Source of the DNA: Chrysomallon squamiferum
Taxonomy: Eukaryota > Animalia > Mollusca
Assembly: GCA_012295275.1 (NCBI GenBank)
Contig: CM022665.1
Location: 310,001 to 374,000, forward strand
Reading direction: 5' to 3'
DNA: 64,000 nucleotides
The translations under genes and the position numbers were made by a program. Positions 1-64,000 of the stretch are shown one piece after another. The notes beneath the pieces were generated by a model. The model saw nothing but the letters and a program-made list of their open reading frames with translations. It made no database searches and was not told the origin of the DNA. Each line of letters begins with the position of its first letter. The stretch's first letter is position 1.

Positions 1-36
1 TGACTCTGTTGATTTCCGTTTGTTCATGGGTTAAAC
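1..36 (-). CDS. 5' part of an 'exon A' cassette of a further IAP-cluster gene copy, running off the left edge
   Basis: Reverse complement reads tttctgaaattacag|gtttaacccatgaacaaacggaaatcaacagagtca = (G)LTHEQTEINRV; same acceptor and exon start as the A exons of the 46.7-62.8 kb array. Confidence 0.55.
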
Positions 37-333
37 CTGTAATTTCAGAAATATAGATGAACATAAAATGATTTTACGTTAGAAATATGTGATGTATTTT
101 TCAGTAATTTTATGAAATGCATTAATATATTGATGATTCATATCTTGATCTGGAGACTGTTTTCTAAAACACCACGAAGAAATTAATACTTCTGATAATC
201 TACGTTTTCATGATTGTACTGCTCATTTACATTTAATGCGTATTATCCCAGATACAAATAAATAAAGTGTGATGTTATCAGACATAAAACTGAAGTAACA
301 AAGGTTAATATAAGGAAAATCTCTGTTACGCAC

Positions 334-370
334 CAGACTGCTCTATAAATAGATTCAAGTTTCTCTTCAT
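334..370 (-). CDS. Candidate first coding exon (MKRNLNLFIEQS, phase-1 donor), inverted copy of 46455-46491
   Basis: ATG...tct g|gtgcgt; 37 nt gives phase 1, compatible with the exon A acceptor at 38-37. Confidence 0.3.
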
Positions 371-1271
371 TCTTTCTGACTGTGTCTTTTACTTTGACAA
401 TTTAAGCAGTTTCTAAATTTAAATAAATTTAATTTGAGTATAATTATTAATAAAACACTGGAACGTGTTAAATTTGTAGACAAACTGATTCTATATTGAT
501 TACTGACCTCAAGAAATAAAATAACATGTACTATACATGTAGTCTGATGTAAGTATGAACTTTACCAAAGTTTAATCTGATAACATTCAGTCAATCAATT
601 AAAACATCAAACAAAATGTTGTGTTCTTTCATCACAGTTAAGAAATCATTAAACTAACAAATTTATCTTTTACAGAACTACTAATGTTTATTCAAATCTA
701 GCTACTACCACTGCAGGCAGTTAAGTCTTCTCGAACATTCTCGGAAATATTTTCGTTCATACAAGTTTCAGTTTCATAAAGAAACCAAAAAAAGAAGAAG
801 AAGAAAAAAAAAAAAAAAAAAGAAACTAAAACACGGAAATATTTTATAATATAAAGCAACACAAAACTAATAATTTTAAATATTTGTTTTAGCACGTAGT
901 CTATGAACTTTTAACTGTTACTGAAAACGATATTCAAGAATGGGCGACACAAACGGGTCAATATTTGTGACCTTTTCGTTGTCGCTCGTAACAAATACAA
1001 AGGAAGGTCGTTTTTTCTGTTATCTGAATGTGGTAAAACAGGTTAAAACGTAATCATTATTTCATAAACTGTCATGTTAATAAGCTCTTTAACTAAATGT
1101 AAGGTCCATGTCCATTTTACTGGAGTGTTTGAATCGAATAAAACCACTTCAATATTTGATATAAAATTTACAAAGAGGAAGTAATGTTAGAATCTGTTTG
1201 AAAAAATCAGCGTATTTACAAACATAAATATCTGATTACTGGATATAGAAAACTGTTATTACAATGTTTAT

Positions 1272-8279: not shown

Positions 8280-8314
<35 letters not shown>

Positions 8315-17550: not shown

Positions 17551-17709
17551 TCCATTGATATTCAATGATGTTTTCCAGGGAATAAATCAAATCATAAAAT
17601 CAAAACAAAACTATCAACATGTTTAACCTATAGTATTGTACGTTTATCAGACATAGAGAGTATTTTAAATTTTACATTAACTTTTTATCTTATAGACAAG
17701 TCAGCAATG

Positions 17710-18213
17710 AGAAGTGATGAGAGAGAACAGCTGAGAAGTGATAAAACGGAACAGCTGAGAAGAGATGAGACAGAACAGTTGAGAAGTAATGAGACAGAAC
17801 AGCTGAGAAGTGATAAGACAGAACAACTGAGAAGCAATGAGACAGAACAGCTGAGAAGTGAAGAGACAGAACAACTGAGAAGTGATGAGACAGAACAACT
17901 GAGAAGTGATAAAGCAGAGCAACAGAGAGGTAATGAGACAGAACAGTTGAGAAGTGAAGAGACAGAACAACTGAGAAGTGACGAGACAGAACAGCGGAGA
18001 AGTAATGAGAGAGAACAGTTGAGAAGTGATGAGACAAAACAACTGAGAAGTGACGAGACAGAACAGCGGAGAAGTAATGAGAGAGAACAGTTGAGAAGTG
18101 ATGAGACAGAGCAGTTGAGAAGAGATGAGACAAAACAACTGACAAGTGATGAGACACAAGAGTTGAGAAGTGATGAGACAGAACAGCTGAGATATGATGA
18201 AACAGGACAGTGG
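17710..18213 (+). repeat. Coding 24-bp minisatellite, 21 units, consensus RSDETEQL
   Basis: agaagtgatgagacagaacagytg repeated with no indels or stops in this frame. Confidence 0.95.
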
Positions 18214-19448
18214 AGAAGTTGTCGATATGATAACGCATTTACTCTAGAGAATCTGGCATATAATTATCAATTTAAATTGCGCGAATCCACCTGTGACAGG
18301 ACTTCAGACAGTAGCGAAGGAACTGAATCGGAAGATGCGAGCACTGGTTACAGTCAGTCAGAAGCTGCAACTATTGATATAAATGAATCAGAACTGATGA
18401 GTAGTGACATAACAGGATCGTTTTTTTTTTAAACAAGAGAAGTAATACATGGAGATATTTATGAGAATGAAGTAGAACAGGCGGGTTTCATGGAAACAGA
18501 ATCAGAAATTACTGATGATGAGAGAAATCAAACTGGAATGACGAGAAATGATGAATTAGGGACAGAACATTTACACACTGTCAGATACAGGAGGGAGTGG
18601 GACAGATATGCGTCTTAGTTACAATTTTCTCTAACCTCAGCCTGGCCAAGTCGTCTTGCAGCTGCTGGATTCTACTTTACTGGGACTGGTGATCGCGTTG
18701 TCTGCTTCAGCTGTGGTCAGAGCTATGATCAGTGGAGAGCCGCAGATAACCCAATGGAAATTCACAGACAAATCTCACCAAGCTGCAGATTTGTCCTGCG
18801 AGAGGAAGAAAATGAATCGATTAGGCTAAGTGATAATGATGAGCAGACTGTACAAGCATTCCTGGGCAGATTATCTGTACCAGTGTCGGAATCTTCTGCT
18901 ATTCAAAGTGAAACACTTCGTAATCGGAGCGAGTCTGAAAGTTCAGTTAGTGACAATGAACTGTTTGGAGTTTCTGAAACACCAAGAAATAACGTCGATA
19001 ACATCGTTACCTCTGTTGGTCATGAAAATATTGTCGTATCTGCCGTTAGTTTGACTGGTACTGTAGCATCAGCTACTAATACCAGCTGTATGCCTACATT
19101 TACTGGTAATATTTGTAGTATACCCTCATGCACTTTTTCATCTACATCTACTGTAGACCTGAGATAACCCAATGGAAATTCATGGACAAATCTCACCAAG
19201 CTGCAGATTTGTCCTGGGAGAGGAAGAAAGTGAACCGATTGGGCTAAGTGATAATGATGAGCAGAGACTACAAGAATTAAATCTGAAGAAACGAGTGGTG
19301 AATTTACTGACGCAAAAAATAGTACAAAGTGCGCATCTGAAGGTATATTGTAGTTTTATTTCACTACATTTTATTAATTTATTTATTTATTGATCTTGTT
19401 ATTACTATAGTTACATTATTGCTATATTTGTTCTTGTTCTCGTTGTTC

Positions 19449-19483
<35 letters not shown>

Positions 19484-19835
19484 ACCATTATTACGTTTTA
19501 TTAATTTATTTTCTATTTTTATTTATTTATTCAGTAATTCATTCATTCATTCATTTATTATGTTGTAACTATTGTTATGGTTGCTGTCATTAATGTTACT
19601 GGTGATGCTATTATCATCATCATCATCATCATCATCATTATTATTATTATTATTACCTGATACATTTCGATAACAAAAAGGTAACGTAAGGAAGAACGAA
19701 AGGTACAACATTTTAATAAATAGATAAAACATTTTGAAGAGTCAAAGTTACTTTTGTGATTGTGTCAAAGATTTTATACTTCAACGTATATAACTTTTTT
19801 ATAACTAAAGAAGTATTTGAAAAATTGTGTTGCAA

Positions 19836-19889
<54 letters not shown>

Positions 19890-20144
19890 CATAGAACTAA
19901 TTGTTTCAAACATTTTGTGTAGCAAAGTACACACATTAATATTATTATTATTATTAATATTATTATTATTACTTTAAAACGAATTTTCTTGTTTCAAAGT
20001 TTATATCCTTCAAACTATACAAATTGTTTGATTTTAAAACTATATTGTTTATTTTATTAGTTTCAAAATATACGTAATATTTGACGTACAAAATTATCTT
20101 ATTTTTATAACATACTTTTTGATATTTAATACATTCCTTCTCAG

Positions 20145-20311
20145 ATGACAATGAAGAATTCATCTGCAAAATTTGTCTTGAAAACAGGGTCAGAATAATG
20201 TTCCTACCCTGCGGTCATATTTGTTGCTGTGAAGATTGTACACCCAGACTGCGAAGATGTCCACTTTGTAGAGAGATAATCCAAGCCACTGTGCGAGCTT
20301 TCTTGTGTTAA
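20145..20311 (+). CDS. Terminal RING exon (IAP-type C3HC4), intact
   Basis: ccttctcag| phase 1, (D)DNEEFICKICLENRVRIMFLPCGHICCCEDCTPRLRRCPLCREIIQATVRAFLC*. Confidence 0.9.
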
Positions 20312-29797: not shown

Positions 29798-30570
29798 GTT
29801 TAATCCGTGAACTGATGAAAATCATGGTACAGAGAACTTGTTCGCCATTAAATGCACTTGAAAACATCAGAATAGAAGGTGCGGACAATAGAATTTTCTT
29901 TCTACAAATTTGTAAATTTAATAGTTATCGAAAGATGATGAAAGATAACATAAAGTTGTAACAAGGAAACACATTATTACACGATTAAACCTTAGTAGTT
30001 TAGTTTCATACCTTATGTAACAAGTTCATCACCTGTTTCATTTAAATAAAATTACTGAAAAATGCATTACCTGTTTCTAATGTAAAATCATAATAGTGTG
30101 ACGAACCACACTTCACAGATGTTAATTATTAAATGTTTGTTTTAATATCATGTTACTGAACTTACAGAGCCAAGTGATAAGCAGGTGAACATGACTGACA
30201 AGAACATTGAGTCGTCAGGTACTTTTTTACCTTGTTTAACGTAAATGATAAAATGATTGTCATAAAATTAATCTTCTAATCTCAGTGAGTGCTACATAAA
30301 TATAATGGGGAAGAAATAATTATTTTGTTAGAAACGTAAGGTGATGTTAATTTTTCACATTTTATTTGTATTCATTTTTCTGAAATTACAGGTTTAACCC
30401 GTGAACTACTGAAAATCATGCTTCAGAAAATTCGTTCTCTATTACATTCGGTTGGAAACATCACAATAGAAGGTATATAAAATTTAAATTTTATATATAT
30501 ACATATATATTATGTTTTTTTAAAGAATTCAAAATAATTAACCGATGTTTTTTTTTAATGTTAAAATTAC

Positions 30571-33692: not shown

Positions 33693-33870
33693 GAATTATG
33701 CTGCAATTATCAAACGTCCGTAAGTTAGATACGATCCATATACTCAGTCTGTGCAGAAGCTGAACAACAAGGACATGTTACACTGCGTGGCACGTAATCT
33801 CAAAGGAGAACTCGAAGTACTCCAACACGCCATCGATCGGATACAGTCGTTTAACCTCGACTCCCGATGA
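33693..33870 (+). pseudogene. Terminal exon of a biopterin-dependent aromatic amino acid hydroxylase (TH/TPH/PAH family), disrupted
   Basis: ttttag|g aat tat...: (R)NYAAIIKRP*VRYDPYTQSVQKLNNKDMLHCVARNLKGELEVLQHAIDRIQSFNLDSR*; matches family motif RPFxVRYDPYTQ plus C-terminal tetramerisation helix; phase-2 intron at the Arg; TAA at 33721-33723. Confidence 0.85.
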
Positions 33871-38926: not shown

Positions 38927-38961
<35 letters not shown>

Positions 38962-39639
38962 GTAAGTTAATAAATAAAATACTTAAATAGATAATGAAAT
39001 GAAATATATAAACAAAGAAATAAAATAAAATAAATGTTTGTTGTCTAGAGTATCAAATTTTTCTGATGGATAATATTTAGCTAACTTTTACTAGAACAAA
39101 ATAGAATGTATTCAACAAAATATAAACAAATAAAATAAATAAGTAATAAAATGAAAAATGGTTGTAGCCTAAGTTATGAGATTATTCTAAACAGCAGTTA
39201 GATTTCTGGAATGTTACCAAGTTGATTTTGTACACGTAAATTGAGACACGTAATCATTACGAGGTCGAAACAACCCGTATACGTTTTATTTTCTGTTTTT
39301 AATATATCGAAGAGTTTGAGCTGTTCTTTATAGAAACAATGTTACTAGGAATTTAAGTAAGTTTACAAAAAAAAAATATTAACAGTTTTCTCTATCTAGT
39401 TATTTATGTCTATAAATATACATTTATTTCTGCAGAGATATTTAAACTTTTTAAATGTATGACACTAATTTAACATTACTTCATTGTTTACGTTGTATAA
39501 AATTTCATAGCTATTCTCGTCCATTTTGTTGGATTCAGTGAGTCATGTAAAACATACTTAGACACTGGATTTAGTTACAGAGTTTAATAACATGACCAGT
39601 ATTTGAAATAATAATTACGTTTTAACATATTAAACTTCT

Positions 39640-39934
39640 ATGAAAGAGATATTGATCTTAATGAAAATAGAAGATGTTACGGTATGTTATTAGAAAAGTA
39701 TAGGTTTACCAAAAAAACATTAGACACATCGCATAGCCCAATATCGGAATATCACAAACAAATTTGAAGATAGAAATATTGAAGAATTTTACGTCCCAGA
39801 AAATGATATTTTAAATGAGTTCGTGTCAACAGAATTAAAATTTACAAAAATCTTATTTCATTTTATTCACAAATCTGAAGGACGGAGTTGCGTTCTAAGT
39901 GAAACAACAAGAAACACAGAACGTGCAACTGTAG
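39640..39934 (+). pseudogene. Remnant of IAP pre-RING exon end with donor
   Basis: ...HKSEGRSCVLSETTRNTERATV|gtatattgtag aligns with KSEETSGEFTDAKNSTKCASE|gtatattgtag at 19279-19352. Confidence 0.6.
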
Positions 39935-45553: not shown

Positions 45554-46454
45554 CGATAAACATTGTAATAACAGTTTTCTATATCCAGTAATCAGATATT
45601 TATGTTTGTAAATACGCTGATTTTTTCAAACAGATTCTAACATTACTTCCTCTTTGTAAATTTTATATCAAATATTGAAGTGGTTTTATTCGATTCAAAC
45701 ACTCCAGTAAAATGGACATGGACCTTACATTTAGTTAAAGAGCTTATTAACATGACAGTTTATGAAATAATGATTACGTTTTAACCTGTTTTACCACATT
45801 CAGATAACAGAAAAAACGACCTTCCTTTGTATTTGTTACGAGCGACAACGAAAAGGTCACAAATATTGACCCGTTTGTGTCGCCCATTCTTGAATATCGT
45901 TTTCAGTAACAGTTAAAAGTTCATAGACTACGTGCTAAAACAAATATTTAAAATTATTAGTTTTGTGTTGCTTTATATTATAAAATATTTCCGTGTTTTA
46001 GTTTCTTTCTTTTTTTTTTTTCTTCTTCTTCTTTTTTTGGTTTCTTTATGAAACTGAAACTTGTATGAACGAAAATATTTCCGAGAATGTTCGAGAAGAC
46101 TTAACTGCCTGCAGTGGTAGTAGCTAGATTTGAATAAACATTAGTAGTTCTGTAAAAGATAAATTTGTTAGTTTAATGATTTCTTAACTGTGATGAAAGA
46201 ACACAACATTTTGTTTGATGTTTTAATTGATTGACTGAATGTTATCAGATTAAACTTTGGTAAAGTTCATACTTACATCAGACTACATGTATAGTACATG
46301 TTATTTTATTTCTTGAGGTCAGTAATCAATATAGAATCAGTTTGTCTACAAATTTAACACGTTCCAGTGTTTTATTAATAATTATACTCAAATTAAATTT
46401 ATTTAAATTTAGAAACTGCTTAAATTGTCAAAGTAAAAGACACAGTCAGAAAGA

Positions 46455-46491
46455 ATGAAGAGAAACTTGAATCTATTTATAGAGCAATCTG
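46455..46491 (+). CDS. Candidate first coding exon (MKRNLNLFIEQS), phase-1 donor
   Basis: Acceptor tttag| at 46411-46412, ATG at 46455, g|gtgcgt; phase matches downstream cassette exons. Confidence 0.3.
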
Positions 46492-47505
46492 GTGCGTAAC
46501 AGAGATTTTCCTTGTATTAACCTTTGTTACTTCAGTTTTATGTCTGATAACATCACACTTTATTTATTTGTATCTGGGATAATACGCATTAAATGTAAAT
46601 GAGCAGTACAATCATGAAAACGTAGATTATCAGAAGTATTAATTTCTGCGTGGTGTTTTAGAAAACAAAATATCGTCTCCAGATCACGAGATGAATCATC
46701 AATATATTAAGACATTTCATAAGCGTGGAGTTTCATTAATGTCCTGGTTTCGTTTTCAAATAGTTTTTCTGTCTGTGATTTTGTGCATTTTTATAATCTG
46801 AATGACTACTACATGAATATAATAGGTGAAAAAGAATTATTTTCTTACAAACGTTAGCTGATATTAATTTTACACATTTTATGTTTATCGATATTTCTGA
46901 AATTACAAATTGGAAGATGATGAAAGAACACAGACAGTAGTAAAAAATAAAAATATCGTTATATGATTAAACCTTGTTTGTTTAGTGTCATTCTTTATTT
47001 AACATGTGACGCTCGTTTTATTAAAACTTAATTTGCATGGTCACCCTCCGTAATGATGTCTGACTTGAGGGTATTCGTAAAGTTCTTGTTGTTTTTTTGT
47101 TTTTTTCTAATCTTTATTTTTATTTATTTGTTTGTTTATTTATTACTGTTATTATTATTAAAAGGAGCAGTATTTAATAGATCCGTAAGCTCTGTTTCTG
47201 ACAGTTATTTGCAGATACGGAGAAACACTTTTTGCATTTTGTATTGTAAGTGAAACGCGTACTCATCTGAGGAAAACGCTGAAATTTCTATCTCGATGTC
47301 GTCTGTGGATGCTTAGAACAATTCATCCTTACAACTCAAAATCTCGGTTCTAGATTGGCGAGAAAAATCACGAATATAACTGATCCTTTTAAAAAAAATT
47401 AGTGAAAACTGCATCGCCTATATCTAATGTAAAATCATAACAGTGTGACGAACCACACTTCACAGATGTTAATTTTAAAATGTTTGTTTTGATTTCATCT
47501 TACAG

Positions 47506-50500
47506 AACTTACAGAGCTAAGTGATAAGCAGGTGAAGATGATAAAGAGGATCTTACATCCTTTAGGTACTTTTACACCTTCTTGAACGTAACTTATAAAG
47601 TCACTGTCATATACTTAATCTACTGATGTTTTGTTTGGTAAACAACCTGTTTTTAAGTATTTATTTCTTAATCAATACCTGTAAAAAAAAAGAAATAATT
47701 GCCTGTACATCCAATTATTTAGTACGGCTATAAAATATTGATATATAGTAATTTCAGTAGCTGATAGAGCCCTATCCTGATTTTACCTCACTCATGCCTT
47801 TCAATGAATATACGAACATCAACATCTATTATTTATTTTAATTAGTGAACGTTTGTCAGTGATTTTGAATTATTGCAAGTCAGACAAATGTCTCCTTTAT
47901 TTCCTGGTTTTAAAAATTATCCCAAAAGATAAGCGTGGAGTTTCATTAATGTCCTGGTTTCGTTTTCAAATAGTTTTTCTGTCTGTGATTTTGTGCATTT
48001 TTTATAATCTGAATGACTACTACATGAATATAATAGGTGAAAAAATTATTTTCTTACAAACGTTAGCTGATATTAATTTTACACATTTTATGTTTATCCA
48101 TATTTCTGAAATTACAGGTTTAACCTATGAAACAACGGAAATCATGTGTCACAAAACTTGTTCAACTTTAAGTGAAGTTGAAAACAGCACAATAAAAGGT
48201 ATGTACAATTTAATTTGTTTTGTTTTTTTTACAATTTTTTAAATTAAATATTTTTGGAAGATGATGAAAGAACACAGACAGTAGTAAAAAATAAAAATAT
48301 CGTTATATGATTAAACCTTGTTTGTTTAGTGTCATTCTTTATGTAACATGTGACGCTCGTTTTATTAAAACGTAATTTGCATGGTCACCCTCCGTAATGA
48401 TGTCTGACTTGAGGGTATTCGTAAAGTTCTTGTTGTTTTTGTGTTTTTTTCTAATCTTTATTTTTATTTATTTGTTTGTTTGTTTATTTATTACTGTTAT
48501 TATTATTAAAAGGAGCAGTATTTAATAGATCCGTAAGCTCTGTTTCTGACAGTTATTTGCAGATACGGAGAAACACTTTTTGCATTTTGTATTGTAAGTG
48601 AAACGCGTACTCATCTGAGGAAAACACTGAAATTTCTATCTCGATGTCGTCTGTGGATGCTTAGAACAATTCGTCCTTACAACTCAAAATCTCGGTTCTA
48701 GATTGGCGAGAAAAATCACGAATATAACTGATCCTTTTAAACAAAATTAGTGAAAACTGCATCGCCTATATCTAATGTAAAATCATAACAGTGTGACGAA
48801 CCACACTTCACAGATGTTAATTTTAAAATGTTTGTTTTGATTTCATCTTACAGAACTTACAGAGCTAAGTGATAAGCAGGTGAAGATCATAAAGAGTAAC
48901 ATTCAGTCATCAGGTACTTTTACACCTTCTTGAACGTAACTTATAAAGTCACTGTCATATACTTAATCTACTGATGTTTTGTTTGGTAAACAACCTGTTT
49001 TTAAGTATTTATTTCTTAATCAATACCTGGAAAGCAAAGAAATAATTGCCTGTACATCCAATTATTTAGTACGGCTATAAAATATTGATATATAGTAATT
49101 TCAGTAGCTGATAGAGCCCTATCCTGATTTTACCTCACTCATGCCTTTCAATGAATATACGAACATCAACATCTATTATTTATTTTAATTAGTGAACGTT
49201 TGTCAGTGATTTTGAATTATTGCAAGTCAGACAAATGTCTCCTTTATTTCCTGGTTTTAAAAATTATCCCAAAAGATAAGCGTGGAGTTTCATTAATGTC
49301 CTGGTTTCGTTTTCAAATAGTTTTTCTGTCTGTGATTTTGTGCATTTTTATAATCTGAATGACTACTACATGAATATAATAGGTGAAAAAAAGAATTATT
49401 TTCTTACAAACGTTAGCTGATATTAATTTTACACATTTTATGTTTATCCATATTTCTGAAATTACAGGTTTAACCTATGAAACAACGGAAATCATGTGTC
49501 ACAAAAAACTTGTTCAACTTTAAGTGAAGTTGAAAACAGCACAATAAAAGGTATGTACAATTTAATTTGTTTTGTTTTTTTTTTACAATTTTTAAATTAA
49601 ATATTTTTGGAAGATGATGAAAGAACACAGACAGTAGTAAAAAAAAAAAATATCGTTATATGATTAAACCTTGTTTGTTTAGTGTCATTCTTTATGTAAC
49701 ATGTGACGCTCGTTTTATTAAAACGTAATTTGCATGGTCACCCTCCGTAATGATGTCTGACTTGAGGGTATTCGTAAAGTTCTTGTTGTTTTTGTGTTTT
49801 TTTCTAATCTTTATTTTTATTTATTTGTTTGTTTATTTATTACTGTTATTATTATTAAAAGGGAGCAGTATTTAATAGATCCGTAAGCTCTGTTTCTGAC
49901 AGTTATTTGCAGATACGGAGAAACACTTTTGCATTTTGTATTGAAAGTGAAACGCGTACTCATCTAAGGAAAACGCTGAAATTTCTATCTCGATGTCGTC
50001 TGTGGATGCTTAGAACAATTCATCCTTACAACTCAAAATCTCGGTTCTAGATTGGCGAGAAAAATCACGAATATAACTGATCCTTTTAAACAAAATTAGT
50101 GAAAACTGCATCGCCTATATCTAATGTAAAATCATAACAGTGTGACGAACCACACTTCACAGATGTTAATTTTAAAATGTTTGTTTTGATTTCATCTTAC
50201 AGAACTTACAGAGCTAAGTGATAAGCAGGTGAAGATGATAAAGAGGATCTTTCATGCTTTACGTACTTTTACACCTTCTTGAACGTAACTTATAAAGTCA
50301 CTGTCATATACTTAATCTACTGATGTTTTGTTTGGTAAACAACCTGTTTTTAAGTATTTATTTCTTAATCAATACCTGGAAAGCAAAGAAATAATTGCCT
50401 GTACATCCAATTATTTAGTACGGCTATAAAATATTGATATATAGTAATTTCAGTAGCTGATAGAGCCCTATCCTGATTTTACCTCACTCATGCCTTTCAA

Positions 50501-53500
50501 TGAATATACGAACATCAACATCTATTATTTATTTTAATTAGTGAACGTTTGTCAGTGATTTCGAATTATTGCAAGTCAGACAAATGTCTCCTTTATTTCC
50601 TGGTTTTAAAAATTATACCAAAAGATAAGCGTGGAGTTTCATTAATGTCCTGGTTTCGTTTTCAAATAGTTTTTCTGTCTGTGATTTTGTGCATTTTTAT
50701 AATCTGAATGACTACTACATGAATATAATAGGTGAAAAAATTATTTTCTTACAAACGTTAGCTGATATTAATTTTACACATTTTATGTTTATCCATATTT
50801 CTGAAATTACAGGTTTAACCTATGAAACAACGGAAATCATGTGTCACAAAACTTGTTCAACTTTAAGTGAAGTTGAAAACAGCACAATAAAAGGTATGTA
50901 CAATTTAATTTGTTTTGTTTTTTTTACAATTTTTTAAATTAAATATTTTTGGAAGATGATGAAAGAACACAGACAGTAGTAAAAAATAAAAATATCGTTA
51001 TATGATTAAACCTTGTTTGTTTAGTGTCATTCTTTATGTAACATGTGACGCTCGTTTTATTAAAACGTAATTTGCATGGTCACCCTCCGTAATGATGTCT
51101 GACTTGAGGGTATTCGTAAAGTTCTTGTTGTTTTTGTGTTTTTTTCTAATCTTTATTTTTATTTATTTGTTTGTTTATTTATTACTGTTATTATTATTAA
51201 AAGGAGCAGTATTTAATAGATCCGTAAGCTCTGTTTCTGACAGTTATTTGCAGATACGGAGAAACACTTTTTGCATTTTGTATTGAAAGTGAAACGCGTA
51301 CTCATCTAAGGAAAACGCTGAAATTTCTATCTCGATGTCGTCTGTGGATGCTTAGAACAATTCATCCTTACAACTCAAAATCTCGGTTCTAGATTGGCGA
51401 GAAAAATCACGAATATAACTGATCCTTTTAAACAAAATTAGTGAAAACTGCATCGCCTATATCTAATGTAAAATCATAACAGTGTGACGAACCACACTTC
51501 ACAGATGTTAATTTTAAAATGTTTGTTTTTGATTTCATCTTACAGAACTTACAGAGCTAAGTGATAAGCAGGTGAAGATGATAAAGAGGATCTTTCATGC
51601 TTTACGTACTTTTACACCTTCTTGAACGTAACTTATAAAGTCACTGTCATATACTTAATCTACTGATGTTTTGTTTGGTAAACAACCTGTTTTTAAGTAT
51701 TTATTTCTTAATCAATACCTGGAAAGCAAAGAAATAATTGCCTGTACATCCAATTATTTAGTACGGCTATAAAATATTGATATATAGTAATTTCAGTAGC
51801 TGATAGAGCCCTATCCTGATTTTACCTCCTCATGCCTTTCAATGAATATACGAACATCAACATCTATTATTTATTTTAATTAGTGAACGTTTGTCAGTGA
51901 TTTCGAATTATTGCAAGTCAGACAAATGTCTCCTTTATTTCCTGGTTTTAAAAATTATCCCAAAAGATAAGCGTGGAGTTTCATTAATGTCCTGGTTTCG
52001 TTTTCAAATAGTTTTTCTGTCTGTGATTTTGTGCATTTTTATAATCTGAATGACTACTACATGAATATAATAGGTGAAAAATTATTTTCTTACAAACGTT
52101 AGCTGATATTAATTTTACACATTTTATGTTTTCCATATTTCTGAAATTACAGGTTTAACCTATGAAACAACGGAAATCATGGCACAAAAACTTGTTCCAC
52201 TTTAAAGTGAAGTTGAAAACAGCACAATAAAAGGTATGTACAATTTAATTTGTTTTGTTTTTTTTACAATTTTTTAAATTAAATATTTTTGGAAGATGAT
52301 GAAAGAACACAGACAGTAGTAAAAAATAAAAATATCTTATTACATGATTAAACCTTGTTTGTTTAGTGTCATTCTTTATGTAACACGTCACGCTCGTTTT
52401 ATTAAAACGTAATTTGCATAGTCCCTCCGTAATGATGTCTGACTTGAGGGTATTCGTAAAGTTCTTGTTGTTTTTGTGTTTTTTTCTAATCTTTATTTTT
52501 ATTTATTTGTTTGTTTATTTATTACTGTTATTATTATTAAATGGGCACCATTTAATATATCCGTAAGCTCTGTTTCTGACAGTCATTTGCAGATACGGAG
52601 AAACGCTTTTTGCATTTTGTATTGTAAGTGAAACGGGTACTCATCTAAGGAAAACGCTGAAATTTGTACCTCGATGTCGTCTGTCGATTCTTAGAACAAC
52701 TCATCCTCACAACTCATAATCTAGATTTTAGATTGGCGAGATAAATCATGAATATAATTGATCCTTTTAAACAAAATTACTGAAAACTGCATCGCCTATA
52801 TCTAATGTAAAATCATAACAGTGTGACGAACCACACTTCACAGATGTTAATTTTTAAATGTTTGTTTTAATTTCATCTTACAGAACTTAAAGAGCTAAGT
52901 GATAAGCAGGTGAAGATGATAAAGAGGATCTTTCAGCCTTTAGGTACTTTTACACGTTCTTGAACCTAACTTATCAAGTGATTGTCATGTATTTAATCTT
53001 CTGTACTTTTATGTGGTAAAGAACTCTGTTTTATTCTTTATCAACAATACCTGTGAAGCAAAGAAATAATTGCCTATACATTCACTTATTTAGTACGCAA
53101 TATAATATTGATATATCGTAATTTCAGTAGCTCACAGGACCCTACCCTGATTTTACCTCACTCATACCTTGCAATTAATATACGAACGTCAACATCTATT
53201 GTTTATTTTAATTAGTGAATGTTTGTCAGTGATTTGGAATTATTGCAAGTGAGACAAATTTCCCTTCGTTTCCCAGTTTTAAGAATTATCCCAAAAGATA
53301 AGCGTGGAGTTTCATTAATGTCCTGGTTTCGTTTTCAAATAGTTTATCTGTCTGTGACTTTGTGCATTTTTATAATCTGAATGACAACTACATGAATATA
53401 TTACATGAATAATTACTTTCTTATAAACGTTAGCTGATGTTAATTTTACACATTTTATGTTTTCTGTATTTCTGAAATTACAGGTTTAACCTATGAACTA

Positions 53501-56500
53501 ACGGAAATCATGGCACAGAAAACTTGTCCCACATTAAGCACAATAAAAGGTATGTACAATTTAATTTATTTTGTTTTTACAATTTTGTAAATTTAGTAAT
53601 TTTGGAAAGATGATGAAAGAACACAGAAAGTAGTAAAAAATAAATATATTATTACATGATTAAACCTTCTTAGATTAGAGTCATGCTTTATGTAACACGT
53701 CGCGCTCGTTTTATTAAAATCTAATTTGGGTAGTCCCCCTCCATAATGTCTGACTTGAGGGTATCCGTAAAGTTCTTGGTTTTTTGTGTTTTAATTGTTT
53801 GTTTGTTTATTATTGTTATTATTAAAATGGGCACCATTTGATATATCCGTATGCTGTTTTTCTGACAGTTATTTGCAGATACGGAGAAACGCTTTTTGCA
53901 TTTTGTATTGTAAGTGAAACGGGTACTCATCTAAGGAAAACGCTGAAATTTCTACCTCGATGTCGTCTGTCGATTCTTACAACAACTCATCCTCACAACT
54001 CATAATCTAGATTTTAGATTGGCGAGATAAATCATGAATATAATTGATCCTTTTAAACAAAATTACTGAAAACTGCATCGCCTATATCTAATGTAAAATC
54101 ATAACAGTGTGACGAACCACACTTCACAGATGTTAATTTTTAAATGTTTGTTTTAATTTCATCTTACAGAACTTAAAGAGCTAAGTGATAAGCAGGTGAA
54201 GATGATAAAGAGGATCTTTCAGCCTTTAGGTACTTTTACACGTTATTGAACCTAACTTATCAAGTGATTGTCATGTATTTAATCTTCTGTACTTTTATGT
54301 GGTAAAGAACTCTGTTTTATTCTTTATCAACAATACCTGTGAAGCAAAGAAATAATTGCCTATACATTCACTTATTTAGTACGCAATATAATATTGATAT
54401 ATCGTAATTTCAGTAGCTCACAGGACCCTACCCTGATTTTACCTCACTCATACCTTGCAATTAATATACGAACGTCAACATCTATTGTTTATTTTAATTA
54501 GTGAATGTTTGTCAGTGATTTGGAATTATTGCAAGTGAGACAAATTTCCCCTTCGTTTCCCAGTTGTAAGAATTATCCCAAAAGATAAGCGTGGAGTTTC
54601 ATTAATGTCCTGGTTTCGTTTTCAAATAGTTTATCTGTCTGTGACTTTGTGCATTTTATAATCTGAATGACAACTACATGAATATATTACATGAATAATT
54701 ACTTTCTTATAAACGTTAGCTGATGTTAATTTTACACATTTTATGTTTTCTGTATTTCTGAAATTACAGGTTTAACCTATGAACTAACGGAAATCATGGC
54801 ACAGAAAACTTGTCCCACATTAAGCACAATAAAAGGTATGTACAATTTAATTTATTTTGTTTTTACAATTTTGTAAATTTAGTAATTTTGGAAAGATGAT
54901 GAAAGAACACAGAAAGTAGTAAAAAATAAATATATTATTACATGATTAAACCTTCTTAGATTAGAGTCATGCTTTATGTAACACGTCACGCTCGTTTTAT
55001 TAAAATCTAATTTGGGTAGTCCCCCTCCATAATGTCTGACTTGAGGGTATCCGTAAAGTTCTTGGTTTTTTGTGTTTTAATTGTTTGTTTGTTTATTATT
55101 GTTATTATTAAAATGGGCACTATTTCATATATCCGTAAGCTGTGTTTCTGACTATTATTTGCAGATACGAAGAAACGCTTTTTGCATTTTGTATTCTAAG
55201 TGAAACGGGTACTCATCTAAGGAAAACGCTGAAATTTCTACCTCGATGTCGTCTGTCGATTCTTAGAACAACTCATCCTCACAACTCATAATCTAGATTT
55301 CAGATGGGCGAGATAAATCATGAATATAATTGATCCTTTTAAACAAAATTACTGAAAACTGCATCGCCTATATCTAATGTAAAATCATAACAGTGTGACG
55401 AACCACACTTCACAGATGTCAATTTTTAAATGTTTGTTTTAATTTCATCTTACAGAACTTAAAGAGCTAAGTGATAAGCAGGTGAAGATGATAAAGAGGA
55501 TCTTTCAGCCTTTAGGTACTTTTACACGTTATTGAACCTAACTTATCAAGTGATTGTCATGTATTTAATCTTCTGTACTTTTATGTGGTAAAGAACTCTG
55601 TTTTATTCTTTATCAACAATACCTGTGAAGCAAAGAAATAATTGCCTATACATTCACTTATTTAGTACGCAATATAATATTGATATATCGTAATTTCAGT
55701 AGCTCACAGGACCCTACCCTGATTTTACCTCACTCATACCTTGCAATTAATATACGAACGTCAACATCTATTGTTTATTTTAATTAGTGAATGTTTGTCA
55801 GTGATTTGGAATTATTGCAAGTGAGACAAATTTCCCCTTCGTTTCCCAGTTTTAAGAATTATCCCAAAAGATAAGCGTGGAGTTTCATTAATGTCCTGGT
55901 TTCGTTTTCAAATAGTTTATCTGTCTGTGACTTTGTGCATTTTTATAATCTGAATGACAACTACATGAATATATTACATGAATAATTACTTTCTTATAAA
56001 CGTTAGCTGATGTTCATTTTACACATTTTATGTTTTCTGTATTTCTGAAATTACAGGTTTAACCTATGAACTAACGGAAATCATGGCACAGAAAACTTGT
56101 CCCACATTAAGCACAATAAAAGGTATGTACAATTTAATTTATTTTTGTTTTTACAATTTTGTAAATTTAGTAATTTTGGAAAGATGATGAAAGAACACAG
56201 AAAGTAGTAAAAAATAAATATATTATTACATGATTAAACCTTCTTAGATTAGAGTCATGCTTTATGTAACACGTCGCGCTCGTTTTATTAAAATCTAATT
56301 TGGGTAGTCCCCCTCCATAATGTCTGACTTGAGGGTATCCGTAAAGTTCTTGGTTTTTTGTGTTTTAATTGTTTGTTTGTTTATTATTGTTATTATTAAA
56401 ATGGGCACCATTTGATATATCCGTATGCTGTTTTTCTGACAGTTATTTGCAGATACGAAGAAACGCTTTTGCATTTTGTATTGTAAGTGAAACGGGTACT

Positions 56501-59500
56501 CATCTAAGGAAAACGCTGAAATTTCTACCTCGATGTCGTCTGTCGATTCTTACAACAACTCATCCTCACAACTCATAATCTAGATTTTAGATTGGCGAGA
56601 TAAATCATGAATATAATTGATCCTTTTAAACAAAATTACTGAAAACTGCATCGCCTATATCTAATGTAAAATCATAACAGTGTGACGAACCACACTTCAC
56701 AGATGTCAATTTTTAAATGTTTGTTTTAATTTCATCTTACAGAACTTAAAGAGCTAAGTGATAAGCAGGTGAAGATGATAAAGAGGATCTTTCAGCCTTT
56801 AGGTACTTTTACACGTTCGTGAACCTAACTTACCAAGCGATTGTCATATATTTAATCTTCTGTACGTTTATGTGGTAAAGAACTCTGTTTTATTCTTTAT
56901 CAACAATACCTGTGAAGCAAAGAAGTAATTGCCTATACATTCACTTATTTAGTATGCAATATAATATTGATATATCGTAATTTCAGTAGCTCACACGAGC
57001 CTACCCTGATTTTACCTCACTCATACCTTTCAATTAATATACGAACGTCAACATCTATTGTTCATTTTAATTAGTGAATGTTTGTCAGTGATTTGGAATT
57101 ATTGCAAGTGAGACAAATTTCCCCTTCGTTTCCCAGTTTTAAGAATTATCCCAAAAGATAAGCGTGGAGTTTCATTAATGTCCTGGTTTCGTTTTCAAAT
57201 AGTTTATCTGTCTGTGACTTTGTGCATTTTTATAATCTGAATGACAACTACATGAATATATTACATGAATAATTACTTTCTTATAAACGTTAGCTGATGT
57301 TCATTTTACACATTTTATGTTTTCTGTATTTCTGAAATTACAGGTTTAACCTATGAACTAACGGAAATCATGGCACAGAAAACTTGTCCCACATTAAGCA
57401 CAATAAAAGGTATGTACAATTTAATTTATTTTTGTTTTTACAATTTTGTAAATTTAGTGATTTTGGAAAGATGATGAAAGAACACAGAAAGTAGTAAAAA
57501 ATAAATATATTATTACATGATTAAACCTTCTTAGATTAGAGTCATGCTTTATGTAACACGTCGCGCTCGTTTTATTAAAATCTAATTTGGGTAGTCCCCC
57601 TCCATAATGTCTGACTTGAGGGTATCCGTAAAGTTCTTGGTTTTTTGTGTTTTAATTGTTTGTTTGTTTATTATTGTTATTATTAAAATGGGCACCATTT
57701 GATATATCCGTATGCTGTTTTTCTGACAGTTATTTGCAGATACGGAGAAACGCTTTTTGCATTTTGTATTGTAAGTGAAACGGGTACTCATCTAAGGAAA
57801 ACGCTGAAATTTCTACCTCGATGTCGTCTGTCGATTCTTAGAACAACTCATCCTCACAACTCATAATCTAGATTTTAGATTGGCGAGATAAATCATGAAT
57901 ATAATTGATCCTTTTAAACAAAATTACTGAAAACTGCATCGCCTATATCTAATGTAAAATCATAACAGTGTGACGAACCACACTTCACAGATGTCAATTT
58001 TTAAATGTTTGTTTTAATTTCATCTTACAGAACTTAAAGAGCTAAGTGATAAGCAGGTGAAGATGATAAAGAGGATCTTTCAGCCTTTAGGTACTTTTAC
58101 ACGTTCGTGAACCTAACTTATCAAGCGATTGTCATATATTTAATCTTCTGTACTTTTATGTGGTAAAGAACTCTGTTTTATTCTTTATCAACAATACCTG
58201 TGAAGCAAAAAGAAATAATTGCCTATACATTCACTTATTTAGTATGCAATATAATATTGATATATCGTAATTTCAGTAGCTCACACGAGCCTACCCTGAT
58301 TTTACCTCACTCATACCTTTCAATTAATATACGAACGTCAACATCTATTGTTTATTTTAATTAGTGAATGTTTGTCAGTGATTTGGAATTATTGCAAGTG
58401 AGACAAATTTCCCCTTCGTTTCCCAGTTTTAAGAATTATCCCAAAAGATAAGCGTGGAGTTTCATTAATGTCCTGGTTTCGTTTTCAAATAGTTTATCTG
58501 TCTGTGACTTTGTGCATTTTTATAATCTGAATGACAACTACATGAATATATTACATGAATAATTACTTTCTTATAAACGTTAGCTGATGTTAATTTTACA
58601 CATTTTATGTTTTCTGTATTTCTGAAATTACAGGTTTAACCTATGAACTAACGGAAATCATGGCACAGAAAACTTGTCCCACATTAAGCACAATAAAAGG
58701 TATGTACAATTTAATTTATTTTTGTTTTTACAATTTTGTAAATTTAGTAATTTTGGAAAGATGATGAAAGAACACAGAAAGTAGTAAAAAATAAATATAT
58801 TATTACATGATTAAACCTTCTTAGATTAGAGTCATGCTTTATGTAACACGTCACGCTCGTTTTATTAAAATCTAATTTGGGTAGTCCCCCTCCATAATGT
58901 CTGACTTGAGGGTATCCGTAAAGTTCTTGGTTTTTTGTGTTTTAATTGTTTGTTTGTTTATTATTGTTATTATTAAAATGGGCACCATTTGATATATCCG
59001 TATGCTGTTTTTCTGACAGTTATTTGCAGATACGGAGAAACGCTTTTTGCATTTTGTATTGTAAGTGAAACGGGTACTCATCTAAGGAAAACGCTGAAAT
59101 TTCTACCTCGATGTCGTCTGTCGATTCTTAGAACAACTCATCCTCACAACTCATAATCTAGATTTTAGATTGGCGAGATAAATCATGAATATAATTGATC
59201 CTTTTAAACAAAATTACTGAAAACTGCATCGCCTATATCTAATGTAAAATCATAACAGTGTGACGAACCACACTTCACAGATGTCAATTTTTAAATGTTT
59301 GTTTAATTTCATCTTACAGAACTTAAAGAGCTAAGTGATAAGCAGGTGAAGATGATAAAGAGGATCTTTCAGCCTTTAGGTACTTTTACACGTTCGTGAA
59401 CCTAACTTACCAAGCGATTGTCATATATTTAATCTTCTGTACGTTTATGTGGTAAAGAACTCTGTTTTATTCTTTATCAACAATACCTGTGAAGCAAAGA

Positions 59501-61953
59501 AATAATTGCCTATACATTCACTTATTTAGTACGCAATATAATATTGATATATCGTAATTTCAGTAGCTCACACGAGCCTACCCTGATTTTACCTCACTCA
59601 TACCTTTCAATTAATATACGAACGTCAACATCTATTGTTCATTTTAATTAGTGAATGTTTGTCAGTGATTTGGAATTATTGCAAGTGAGACAAATTTCCC
59701 CTTCGTTTCCCAGTTTTAAGAATTATCCCAAAAGATAAGCGTGGAGTTTCATTAATGTCCTGGTTTCGTTTTCAAATAGTTTATCTGTCTGTGACTTTGT
59801 GCATTTTTATAATCTGAATGACAACTACATGAATATATTACATGAATAATTACTTTCTTATAAACGTTAGCTGATGTTAATTTTACACATTTTATGTTTT
59901 CTGTATTTCTGAAATTACAGGTTTAACCTATGAACTAACGGAAATCATGGCACAGAAAACTTGTCCCACATTAAGCACAATAAAAGGTATGTACAATTTA
60001 ATTTATTTTGTTTTTACAATTTTGTAAATTTAGTAATTTTGGAAAGATGATGAAAGAACACAGAAAGTAGTAAAAAATAAATATATTATTACATGATTAA
60101 ACCTTCTTAGATTAGAGTCATGCTTTATGTAACACGTCACGCTCGTTTTATTAAAATCTAATTTGGGTAGTCCCCCTCCATAATGTCTGACTTGAGGGTA
60201 TCCGTAAAGTTCTTGGTTTTTTGTGTTTTAATTGTTTGTTTGTTTATTATTGTTATTATTAAAATGGGCACCATTTAATATATCCGTATGCTGTTTTTCT
60301 GAAAGTTATTTGCAGATACGGAGAAACGCTTTTTCCATTTTGTATTGTAAGTGAAACGGGTACTCATCTAAGGAAAACGCTGAAATTTCTACCTCGATGT
60401 CGTCTGTCGATTCTTACAACAACTCATCCTCACAACTCATAATCTAGATTTTAGATGGGCGAGATAAATCATGAATATAATTGATCCTTTTAAACAAAAT
60501 TACTGAAAACTGCATCGCCTATATCTAATGTAAAATCATAACAGTGTGACGAACCACACTTCACAGATGTCAATTTTTAAATGTTTGTTTTAATTTCATC
60601 TTACAGAACTTAAAGAGCTAAGTGATAAGCAGGTGAAGATGATAAAGAGGATCTTTCAGCCTTTAGGTACTTTTACACGTTCTTGAACCTAACTTATCAA
60701 GTGATTGTCATGTATTTAATCTTCTGTACTTTTATGTGGTAAAGAACTCTGTTTTATTCTTTATCAACAATACCTGTGAAGCAAAGAAATAATTGCCTAT
60801 ACATTCACTTATTTAGTACGCAATATAATATTGATATATCGTAATTTCAGTAGCTCACACGAGCCTACCCTGATTTTACCTCACTCATACCTTTCAATTA
60901 ATATACGAACGTCAACATCTATTGTTTATTTTAATTAGTGAATGTTTGTCAGTGATTTGGAATTATTGCAAGTGAGACAAATTTCCCCTTCGTTTCCCAG
61001 TTTTAAGAATTATCCCAAAAGATAAGCGTGGAGTTTCATTAATGTCCTGGTTTCGTTTTCAAATAGTTTATCTGTCTGTGACTTTGTGCATTTTTATAAT
61101 CTGAATGACAACTACATGAATATATTACATGAATAATTACTTTCTTATAAACGTTAGCTGATGTTAATTTTACACATTTTATGTTTTCTGTATTTCTGAA
61201 ATTACAGGTTTAACCTATGAACTAACGGAAATCATGGCACAGAAAACTTGTCCCACATTAAGCACAATAAAAGGTATGTACAATTTAATTTATTTTGTTT
61301 TTACAATTTTGTAAATTTAGTAATTTTGGAAAGATGATGAAAGAACACAGAAAGTAGTAAAAAATAAATATATTATTACATGATTAAACCTTCTTAGATT
61401 AGAGTCATGCTTTATGTTACACGTCACGCTCGTTTTATTAAAACCTAATTTGGGTAGTCCCCCTCCATAATGTCTGACTTGAGGGTATCCGTAAAGTTCT
61501 TGGTTTTTTGTGTTTTAATTGTTTGTTTGTTTATTATTGTTATTATTAAAATGGGCACCATTTAATATATCCGTATGCTGTTTTTCTGAAAGTTATTTGC
61601 AGATACGGAGAAACGCTTTTTCCATTTTGTATTGTAAGTGAAACGCGTACTCGTCTAAGGAAAACGCTGAAATTTCTACCTCGATGTCGTCTGTCGATTC
61701 TTAGAACAACTCATCCTCACAACTCATAATCTAGATTTTAGATGGGCGAGATAAATCATGAATATAATTGATCCTTTTAAACAAAATTACTGAAAACTGC
61801 ATCGCCTATATCTAATGTAAAATCATAACAGTGTGACGAACCACACTTCACAGATGTCAATTTTTAAATGTTTGTTTTAATTTCATCTTACAGAACTTAA
61901 AGAGCTAAGTGATAAGCAGGTGAAGATGATAAAGAGGATCTTTCAGCCTTTAG
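47506..61953 (+). CDS. Twelve 60-nt 'B' exons (starts 47506, 48854, 50203, 51546, 52884, 54170, 55456, 56743, 58031, 59320, 60607, 61894)
   Basis: tttcatcttacag|aactt...|gtactt; phase 1/1; all open, e.g. (E)LKELSDKQVKMIKRIFQPL. Confidence 0.65.
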
Positions 61954-62547
61954 GTACTTTTACACGTTCTTGAACCTAACTTATCAAGTGATTGTCATGA
62001 ATTTAATCTTCTGTACTTTTATGTGGTAAAGAACTCTGTTTTATTCTTTATCAACAATACCTGTGAAGCAAAGAAGTAATTCACTTATTTAGTACGCAAT
62101 AAAATATTGACATATCGTAATTTCAGTGTCTCACAGGACCCTACCCTGATTTTACTACACTCATACCTTTCAATTAATATACAAACGTCAACATCTATTG
62201 TTTATTTTAATTAGTGAATGTTTGTCAGTGATTTGGGATTATTGCAAGTGAGACAAATTTCCCCTTCGTTTCCCAGTTTTAAGAATTATCCCAAAAGATA
62301 AGCGTGGAGTTTCATTAATGTCCTGGTTTCGTTTTCAAATAGTTTATCTGTCTGTGAGTGTGCATTTTTATAATCTGAATGACAACTACATAAATATATT
62401 ACATTAATAATTACTTTCTCATAAACGTTAGCTGATGTTAATTTTACACATTTTATGTTTTCTGTATTTCTGAAATTACAGGTTTAACCTATGAACTAAC
62501 GGAAATCATGGCACAGAAAACTTGTCCCACATTAAGCACAATAAAAG
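48118..62547 (+). CDS. Twelve 'A' exons (81-83 nt: 48118, 49468, 50813, 52153; 66 nt: 53484, 54770, 56057, 57344, 58634, 59921, 61208, 62482)
   Basis: tttctgaaattacag|gtttaacc...ataaaag|gtatgt; phase 1/1; (G)LTYETTEIMCHKTCSTLSEVENSTIK or (G)LTYELTEIMAQKTCPTLSTIK; copies at 49468 and 52153 have homopolymer indels. Confidence 0.7.
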
Positions 62548-63407
62548 GTATGTACAATTTAATTTATTTTGTTTTTACAATTTTGTAAATTTAGTAATTT
62601 TGGAAAGATGATGAAAGAACACAGAAAGTAGTAAAAAATAAATATATTATTACATGATTAAACCTTCTTAGATTAGAGTCATGCTTTATGTAACACGTCA
62701 CGCTCGTTTTATTAAAACCTAATTTGGGTATTCGTCATCATCCGTAATGACTTTTGACTTGAGGGTTTTCGTAAATTTGTTGTTGTTTTTCTAAACTTTA
62801 TATATATATATATATATGTATATTTTTATATTTAATTTTTTTTTTAATTTCTGTTCGTTCAATAATTTTGTATCTACGATTAAAGATCACAGTGTTTGTA
62901 TTTGAAATATTATTTTTTAATAAAATGATTATAATGAGAATAAACTTTGTTAATTTTGTTTCATGTCTTCGACAATTTATTTATTAATAAGAAGATAATT
63001 ATCTAAGTCTTACTTTGGATCTTGAACAGTTTTATTTTTTGCCTCTCGTCTATTTTCTGCTTAACTGACTATTCCTGACGTTCTCATGTACTCTGATGAA
63101 TGCTACTTCTTTAGAAGAGAAATAATTTTTCTATCTTCTTGTTGTAAAAAATCATTTAAAACATAAACGCTTAATTTTCTATCTGAAAATGATCTGCGAA
63201 TGAAAAATGTTTTCAAGATTGTAAATGAAATTTAAAATGAACATCCATCTTAAAATGAACTTCCTTACCACTGATATTCAATGATGTTTTCCAGGGAATA
63301 AATCATATAAAATGAAAACAAAACTCTCAACATGATTAACCTATAGTTTGTAAGTCTATCAGACACACAGAATATTTTAAATTTTACATAAATGTTTTAT
63401 CTTATAG

Positions 63408-64000
63408 ACACGTCAGCAATGAGAAGTGATGAGAGAGAACAGCTGAGAAGTGATGAGAGAGAACAGTTGAGAAGTGATGAGAGAGAACAGAGTAGAAGTG
63501 ATGAGAGAGAACAGTTGAGAAGTGATGAGACAGAACAGTGGAGAAGTGATCAAAGAGAACAGCTGAGAAGTGATGAGAGAGAACAGTTGAGAAGTGATGA
63601 GACAGAACAACTGAGAAGTGATGAGATAGAACAGCTGAGAAGTGATGCGATAGAACAGTTGAGAAGTGATGAGACAGAACAGTTGAGAAGTGATGAGACA
63701 GAACAGTTGAGAAGTGATGAGACAGAACAGGTGAGAAATGATGAGACAGAACAGCTGAGAAGTGATGAGATAGAACAGCTGAGAAGTGATGAAATAGAAC
63801 AGTTGAGAAGTGATGAGACAGAACAGTTGAGAAGTGATGAGACAGAACAGTGGAGAAGTGATGAGACAGAACAGTTGAGAAGTGATGAGACAGAACAGTT
63901 GAGAAGTGATGAGACAGAACAGTGGAGAAGTGATGAGACAGAACAGTTGAGAAGTGATGAGAGAGAACAGTTGAGAAGTGATGAGACAGAACAGTGGAGA
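63408..64000 (+). CDS. Start of the large IAP-type exon (RSDETEQL repeat, about 24 units so far), open to the window edge
   Basis: ttttatcttatag|ac acg tca gca atg aga agt gat...; paralogous to 17696 onward, including intron 63268-63407 vs 17552-17695; phase-1 acceptor; BIR/RING expected beyond the window. Confidence 0.8.

Follow-up and report, generated by a model that had tools for sequence, protein, structure and literature searches.

The locus described here lies in 64,000 nucleotides of Chrysomallon squamiferum DNA (assembly GCA_012295275.1, contig CM022665.1, positions 310,001 to 374,000 of the forward strand), a stretch that we call the window and within which all coordinates are counted. 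It contains a tandem array of 12 units, each with two short exons, A and B, and it raises the question of how the last 26 nt of one exon B, its tip, can differ so strongly from the tips of neighbouring units whose introns are almost the same. An earlier note on this DNA, made from the sequence alone, had described these exon ends as a hypervariable patch and had proposed diversifying selection or short-tract gene conversion from a paralogue. Our analysis favours gene conversion: with a probability of about 0.65, the tip of unit 2 is a short tract (13 to ~45 nt) exchanged, in one direction or the other, with distant paralogous exons. Judged from its sequence, the array is likely to be the N-terminal part of a BIR/RING inhibitor-of-apoptosis (IAP) gene.

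Differences concentrated in the tip of exon B

The array falls into two blocks, units 1-4 with ~1.345 kb each and units 5-12 with ~1.287 kb each. With units 1-4 and 6-12 taken as the blocks, intron divergence is 0.2-2.7% within blocks, 10.7% between them and ~18% to the paralogue; the units, introns included, are closer to one another within blocks than to their paralogues, as in concerted evolution. Unit 5 is a mosaic that changes block state several times over the first 33 of the 113 diagnostic sites, and the slot ahead of unit 1 has lost its exon A to a deletion at 46907. Exon B is 60 nt long, and exon A has 81 nt in units 1, 3 and 4, 83 nt in unit 2 and 66 nt in units 5-12; both exons are of phase 1-1.

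Four exon-B ends occur in the array: MIKRIFQPL eight times, MIKRIFHAL twice, and MIKRILHPL and IIKSNIQSS once each. Each of the unit pairs 1/2, 2/3 and 2/4 shows 9 differences in the 26 nt of the tip and none in the 34 nt of the exon-B 5' part, and between units 1 and 2 the changes involve no indel and no stop and leave the GT in place. The introns of the same pairs, with which the earlier note had thought the tip should be compared, carry 5-7 differences over ~1130 sites (~0.5%), a density quite unlike that of the tip; for units 1 and 2 the count is 6 of 1141, and the comparison of tip with introns gives a Fisher p of 1e-12. For the three pairs of unit 2 with block 1, no 26-nt window reached 9 differences in 5000 permutations (scan p 0.0002). 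This is a significant cluster of differences in near-identical flanks, one of the marks of a conversion tract.

The other units do not show such a cluster in the tip. Between units 1 and 3 there are 3 differences in the 26 tip positions (Fisher p 0.002, scan p 0.17), and unit 1 or 3 differs from block 2 at 2-3 of 26, against 10.7% in the introns (p 0.54-0.78). Exon B is identical throughout units 5-12, which makes 8 of the 12 copies the same. The patch described earlier is therefore present in its exon ends and its 9 of 26 differences, but only unit 2 is a significant outlier in the window, the rest of the patch being a few single changes. Nor are the differences confined to exon B, as had been claimed: in unit 4, compensating indels accompanied by a stop produce a window of 12 differences in exon A, and the unit-2 exon A carries a frameshift of +2.

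Splicing of the array exons

Part of the stretch is contained in 9 of the 11 listed sequencing runs, which come from three studies. The evidence on splicing consists of the joints listed for contigs placed on unit 2 in four runs, two of RNA and two of DNA; levels, strand, copy number and absence cannot be inferred from contigs. The joint 49548>48852, from exon A to exon B, occurs in both RNA runs (depth 285 and 139) and in neither of the DNA runs, and exon B is therefore real, as the earlier note had argued. Joints from exon B to exon A in the runs X7 (IFHAL tip to exon A) and X4 (another tip to exon A) indicate that the predicted donor of exon B is used. The array exons are spliced in frame.

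Some joints are unusual. In X7, an exon A is joined to an A-type exon and an exon B to another exon, which a search allowing up to 3 mismatches did not locate in the window, and one X4 RNA contig uses a second in-frame acceptor 9 nt inside exon B. All of these joints keep the frame or are compatible with it. The two tandem acceptors, 9 nt apart, lie at 48849-48862, where block 1 has CTTACAG twice. Each of the four runs examined for splicing has contigs of copies in which the first of these acceptors reads TG, so a new acceptor seems to have lengthened the array form by three residues. A cryptic donor-like CAG/GTGAAG lies within exon B at 48877-48885; its use would shift the frame, and no such joint is among those listed.

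Two intron stretches are identical between the blocks, at 48750-48816 (67 nt, p 0.06) and at 49271-49325 (55 nt, p 0.02), in approximate unit-2 coordinates and with p values from permutation; the first is also well preserved in the paralogue. They are possibly splicing elements or conversion tracts. When these stretches were searched for small nucleolar or other RNAs, there was one Rfam match, with an E of 0.12 and far under its gathering score.

Tip types in other runs and the origin of the unit-2 tip

Variants were checked in 49 contigs on 48854-48945 from four runs (X1, X2, X4 and X5), 31 of which are listed. Letters were assigned to contigs by depth sums, several of which have multiple solutions in X1 and X5; these ambiguous sums were settled by the stated contig numbers and coordinates.

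Every base of unit 2 is present in contigs of these runs. One DNA contig (X1 record 5, 63 nt with 2 differences, at 48888 and 48897) carries the complete SS tip between an exon of array type and the beginning of the block-1 intron, and another (X1 record 7, 40 nt) has no difference from unit 2. An RNA contig that is joined to exon A (X4 record 22) retains the unit-2 T at 48897, and X5 record 27 has C at 48888 on an IF..AL background and starts exactly 30 nt before 48888, as a branch would. Since they recur in DNA and RNA contigs of other runs, the unit-2 bases are not assembly errors. The confirmation that the earlier note had wanted from raw long reads is thus given, by contigs, for each base of the unit-2 exon B, but not for the private base of unit 1 (47555) or for the last exon base C of units 3 and 4, which are not in the variant table of X1, X2, X4 and X5, where contigs cannot show absence. 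The IFHAL-type RNA junction reads ...AG, unlike the last base C of units 3 and 4 as assembled.

The contigs contain at least eight tip types (IFQPL, IFHAL, IFQAL, NIQSS, NIQPL, IIQSP, NFQSS and NIESS), with more in loose ends. Donor-like contigs, in which an SS tip follows a diverged 5' part, were found in X4 (record 23, spliced RNA), X1 (record 6) and X2 (record 14), and one unlisted contig each in X2 and X5 was additionally inferred by subtraction. An SS tip inside flanks that differ by 0.5% from those of units with PL/AL tips requires a short-tract exchange. The 5' boundary of the tract is near 48894-48899, and at its 3' end the tract may reach as far as ~30 nt into the intron, a region in which the paralogue of X2 record 14 differs at 1 of 44 bases. 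At 48899 and 48909 all four base combinations are present, in unit 2, in block 2, in X2 record 11 (NIQ+PL) and in X1 record 1 and X2 record 9 (IIQ+SP), and mosaics of this kind are what tract exchange predicts.

The earlier note had likened the unit-2 end to a relic exon at 30203-30218, which belongs to a diverged A'-B'-A'' trio. The likeness holds at 14 of 16 bases, and the two mismatches mean that the copy at 30203 is not the donor; short-tract conversion thus gains a class of paralogues with a matching tip, seen in contigs, and loses this particular source. Although B' has TG in its first acceptor, an intact CAG lies 9 nt downstream (ending at 30167); its use yields an in-frame exon of 51 nt, flanked by two A exons that are open, and the supposed relic is therefore probably not dead. 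The SS-type tip is probably ancestral and widespread, and the PL/AL type derived in the array lineage, because SS tips occur with diverged 5' halves in the contigs and in the trio, and because the putative first exon (coding part 46455-46491) ends in IEQS, like an SS-type exon-B tip. This first exon is a prediction, and no splice from it was seen in the reads. The base diagnostic of QPL at 48907 is listed for X2 and X5 and not for X1 and X4; as contigs cannot show absence or copy number, this pattern is only a hint of differences between animals.

Gene conversion of the unit-2 tip could proceed as follows. The array would be homogenised by unequal crossing-over together with conversion, and copies at its 5' edge would escape full homogenisation and acquire tracts from many paralogues. 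Flanking homology would come, on the 5' side, from the first half of exon B, which is conserved, and, on the 3' side, from the beginning of the intron, which is almost identical between copies. Symmetric phase-1 exons would preserve the frame after a change of copy number, the skipping of an exon or indels of 3, 6 or 15 nt, and through this preservation the peptide may tolerate a swap of the tip.

Several observations weigh against this account. No contig among those examined equals unit 2 at all 60 bases, and the candidate donors are represented by short contigs and not by a complete locus. Haplotype decoding rests on depth arithmetic, in which unlisted contigs inferred by subtraction account for one term of the X2 sums and three of the X5 sums, and the four combinations at 48899/48909 can also arise by repeated mutation. 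Exon A is broken, as assembled, in two of the four block-1 units (2 and 4), and the array copy may therefore be partly pseudogenic or mis-polished. Across paralogues, the tip has 9-13 differences in 26 positions, against 23-24 in the 166 positions of the flanks (p 1e-4 to 0.017), a contrast that conversion alone does not explain.

Selection and other explanations

This last comparison leads to the alternative that survives best, in which diversifying or balancing selection acts on the protein surface coded by the tip and conversion merely supplies and shuffles alleles, as in the peptide-binding exons of the major histocompatibility complex (MHC); we consider it unlikely. Against the paralogue in the window, where the exon-B 5' part has 2-3 differences in 34 nt, the tip diverges 2-4 times faster than the flanks and the 5' part (p 0.003-0.006). 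In the paralogue pairs, the proportion of nonsynonymous differences (pN) in exon A and the tip exceeds intron divergence (0.29-0.42 vs 0.18, p 0.003-0.03). The tip types seen across the four runs, and a hand count in which all 7 single-base changes among array-type alleles are replacements, point the same way. However, pN in the tip is about equal to the synonymous proportion pS (0.29-0.45 vs 0.32-0.42, against the paralogue), and none of the four tests of pN>pS is significant (p 0.15-0.57), the power being low with ~6 synonymous sites in the tip. The 7 of 7 replacements give a p of about 0.2, there is no excess between the two blocks, two thirds of the copies are identical, and homogenisation of introns or constraint by splice signals could yield the excess of pN over intron divergence. 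The same picture would be expected from a loosely constrained tip beside splice-constrained sequence, or from old tracts moved by conversion. Diversifying selection, as proposed in the earlier note, is thus not demonstrated.

A more ambitious proposal builds on such selection: the array would be a combinatorial N-terminal IAP module with alternatively spliced, frame-symmetric exons in variable copy number, its nine-codon tip shuffled between paralogues by microconversion and kept diverse by selection as a binding surface for microbial or host IAP antagonists. This we regard as rather doubtful.

It is improbable that the tip is simply an unconstrained linker which gains point changes and in-frame indels beside a 5' half held by splice signals, unit 2 being an old variant preserved at the edge. 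The near equality of pN and pS would suit such a linker, as would the longest runs identical between blocks, which adjoin splice acceptors and sit in the exon-B 5' part, and the in-frame indels observed (15 nt in exon A, 3 nt in X2 record 11). An old unit should nevertheless have old introns, and those of unit 2 are ~0.5% from its neighbours; moreover, seven bases of the unit-2 tip match paralogue classes and are not private.

That reads of a paralogue were merged into unit 2 during assembly or polishing is very improbable. The units do carry 0-4 small indel events each, many of them in homopolymers, unit 4 in its exon A and unit 5 at its start appear chimeric, and the best DNA runs contain only 0.55 of the sampled words. 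But the SS tip, an array-type upstream exon and the block-1 intron start stand together in single contigs of DNA (X1 record 5) and RNA (X4 record 22), and phase within ~31 bases derives from real reads. Artefact may still be the source of single private bases, of the exon-A frameshifts and of the unit count.

It is hardly credible that the cluster arose by template switching within the locus between short inverted repeats, or was copied from a 13-nt match in inverted orientation at 46232-46244. Both double changes (exon positions 46/48 and 56/58) make 5-bp inverted repeats perfect in the PL type, and the 13-nt match to the unit-2 tip has a shuffle p of 0.03. But 13% of random double changes do likewise, 21 of 49 between-block control pairs lie in such repeats, and the 13-mer is the best of three patches tried, so both observations are within chance. 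The sites also vary independently among paralogues, where the same tip stands at the homologous position.

A likely inhibitor-of-apoptosis gene

The array-bearing gene is assigned to the IAP family because an exon with 8-residue repeats is common to the array copy and to a BIR/RING paralogue in the window. The paralogue has a BIR domain (Pfam PF00653, E 1.4e-18, 18619-19164) and a RING (PF13920, E 4e-14, match 20147-20308) in its final exon, 20145-20311. The repeat exon and its upstream intron recur directly after the array, at 63268-64000, with 87% DNA identity to the paralogue copy, and the phase and frame of the A and B exons are compatible with joining it. For a BIR-bearing query, the nearest named proteins include the XIAP-like P0002 and P0003 of Gigantopelta aegis, with 54-56% identity across 39% of its length, as well as IAPs of amphioxus and abalone (10 matches among 1271 candidates). 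Two points count against the assignment: the array-bearing copy exits the window at 64000, ahead of the expected BIR and RING, and the joints listed in the read contigs, beyond which there are 8 joints and 211 loose ends, include none that connects the array with the repeat exon or with an exon coding for a BIR. The earlier comparison with immune-recognition loci holds loosely, the context being the BIR/RING inhibitor-of-apoptosis family and not a receptor of a known recognition family.

Two lesions disrupt the paralogous copy, a frameshift near 18430, within a T-run, and a stop codon at 18616, and it has an internal 117-nt duplication of the BIR end (18744-18860 / 19162-19278). A further RING exon, at 13152-12991 on the minus strand, is 81% identical to the RING at 20147, and no BIR was found upstream of it within the window. 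The sequence at 30945-31152 resembles the 3' flank of the RING exon (20332-20435) and lies downstream of the A'-B'-A'' trio with no BIR or RING between them, which suggests an internally deleted family member in this neighbourhood. A match of the 8-residue repeat to Gp5_trimer_C was put down to periodicity rather than homology.

For the peptide coded by exons A and B, our searches found no homologue, fold or family. Among 1.84 billion representatives, exon A had two matches, both unrelated repetitive open reading frames, which were discounted because their scores come from repeats or composition. Pfam gave only a sub-threshold ICAM_N match for seven single exon peptides, and a search of the protein atlas gave no usable match. 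An IAP-type UBA domain, with its MGF loop, was not supported (hhalign probability 0.2%, with 22 of 100 column shuffles as high), in a weak test whose profile consists of four near-identical amphioxus sequences, and a likeness to the post-BIR helix of the G. aegis proteins P0002 and P0003 was not significant (E 0.29-0.55 among 10 proteins). Its sequence alone suggests a modular spacer or interaction module, presumably helical, ahead of the acidic repeat and the BIR.

Features of the window

The DNA of the window is AT-rich (GC 24-35%) and rich in microsatellites, and it contains large inverted duplications. One of 3 kb, with 99.2% identity, pairs 110-3067 with 46722-43754 and has the putative first exon inside it. 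Older inverted blocks pair 4120-8654 with 43162-38611 (92%) and 5301-8488 with 27381-24167 (90%), and a direct pair, 24167-27381 and 38774-41945, has 91% identity. A scaffold gap of 200 N lies between duplicated blocks at 23967-24166. At 33693-33870 on the plus strand there is a last exon like that of an aromatic amino acid hydroxylase (PF00351, E 6e-5), with an in-frame stop near the exon start. The features of the array and its relatives are compiled in Table 1.

Table 1. Positions of the array, its exons and related features in the window.
Feature	Position	Strand	Remarks
Inverted paralogue of first exon, then A-type exon (LTHEQTEINRV...)	1..412, off window edge	-	
Paralogous IAP copy	17696..20311	+	8-residue-repeat exon, then BIR domain, then RING exon
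Diverged A'-B'-A'' trio	29798..30472 (29798-29878, 30168-30218, 30392-30472)	+	all frames open; SS-type tip
Putative first coding exon	46414..46491	+	ATG at 46455, MKRNLNLFIEQS, phase-1 end, GT donor; frame fits exon B
Tandem array, 12 two-exon units	46912..62790	+	block 1 (units 1-4) and block 2 (units 5-12), ~11% apart
Exon B unit 1 (..MIKRILHPL)	47506..47565	+	
Exon A unit 1	48118..48198	+	81 nt, open, phase 1-1
Exon B unit 2 (..IIKSNIQSS)	48854..48913	+	
Divergent tip of unit 2	48888..48911	+	core 48899-48911 common to paralogous exons; likely converted tract
Exon A unit 2	49468..49550	+	83 nt; +2 in A-run, frameshift as assembled
Exon B unit 3 (..MIKRIFHAL)	50203..50262	+	
Exon A unit 3	50813..50893	+	81 nt, open
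Exon B unit 4	51546..51605	+	identical to unit 3
Exon A unit 4	52153..52233	+	compensating indels and stop as assembled; intermediate between blocks
Units 5-12	52884..62547	+	eight identical exons B (..MIKRIFQPL; starts 52884, 54170, 55456, 56743, 58031, 59320, 60607, 61894), eight identical 66-nt exons A, all open
8-residue-repeat exon (LRSDETEQ-type)	63408..64000, continues past window end	+	phase 1, frame fits last exon A

Comparison with known systems

By analogy, the locus would work like microconversion within a concerted array. Paralogues of the MHC undergo short-tract (micro)conversion, and the present case resembles them in its short cluster of exon changes that matches a paralogue, its mosaic haplotypes and its homogeneous introns. 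It differs from them in having no known ligand-binding groove, no significant dN>dS (nonsynonymous over synonymous rate) and an unrelated protein family. Intron-containing tandem arrays of two-exon units are known from the kringle IV-2 repeats of LPA and from NBPF/Olduvai, where, as here, a symmetric two-exon unit is amplified head to tail, with near-identical introns and blocks of subtypes. The array of C. squamiferum has an unrelated peptide, a smaller unit (1.3 kb) and an invertebrate IAP context.

A further parallel is the abalone VERL, for which the consulted parts of PMC2704960 describe an intragenic array whose repeats are kept alike by conversion or unequal crossing-over, except for the diverged first ones, and whose length varies between individuals. 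The combination of diverged first repeats and homogenised later ones is shared with our array, as far as this source goes. VERL, however, is an egg-coat receptor with repeats of 153 residues, and positive selection is reported there at repeats 1-2 (PMC2704960, same parts). The modules described here contain introns, have 42-47 residues and belong to a probably cytosolic protein, in which selection is a possibility.

Molluscan IAP (BIRC) families, such as the XIAP-like P0002 and P0003 of G. aegis, have BIR and RING in common with the paralogue in the window, and P0003 has a low-complexity short repeat directly before its first BIR, as that paralogue does. P0002 and P0003, on the other hand, gave no A/B-like repeat, the best E among 10 proteins being 0.29; in the present gene the variation sits in a tandem two-exon module that precedes the expected BIR, unlike in the described IAP families. 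According to the parts of PMC13159474 consulted, molluscan IAP clusters have been shaped by local repeated duplication, inversion and segmental duplication, and gastropods have 22-89 IAPs; molluscan IAP expansion is also documented in the portions seen of PMC8917759 and PMC7831173. Neither "gene conversion" nor "tandem repeat" occurs in the main text of PMC13159474, and no description of such an IAP array or module was found in the parts of the literature surveyed.

The mechanisms are familiar and the setting is less so, since the work on molluscan IAPs, in the parts consulted, counts genes and BIR/RING architectures. The array would add a further layer to the diversity of these proteins, in the form of a two-exon module that is spliced, varies in copy number and exchanges its tip with paralogues. 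Proof of selection on the tip would point to a variable interaction surface on a regulator of cell death, with nine codons as a defined target; failing that, the locus would be a clear instance of microconversion at the margin of an array that is otherwise homogenised.

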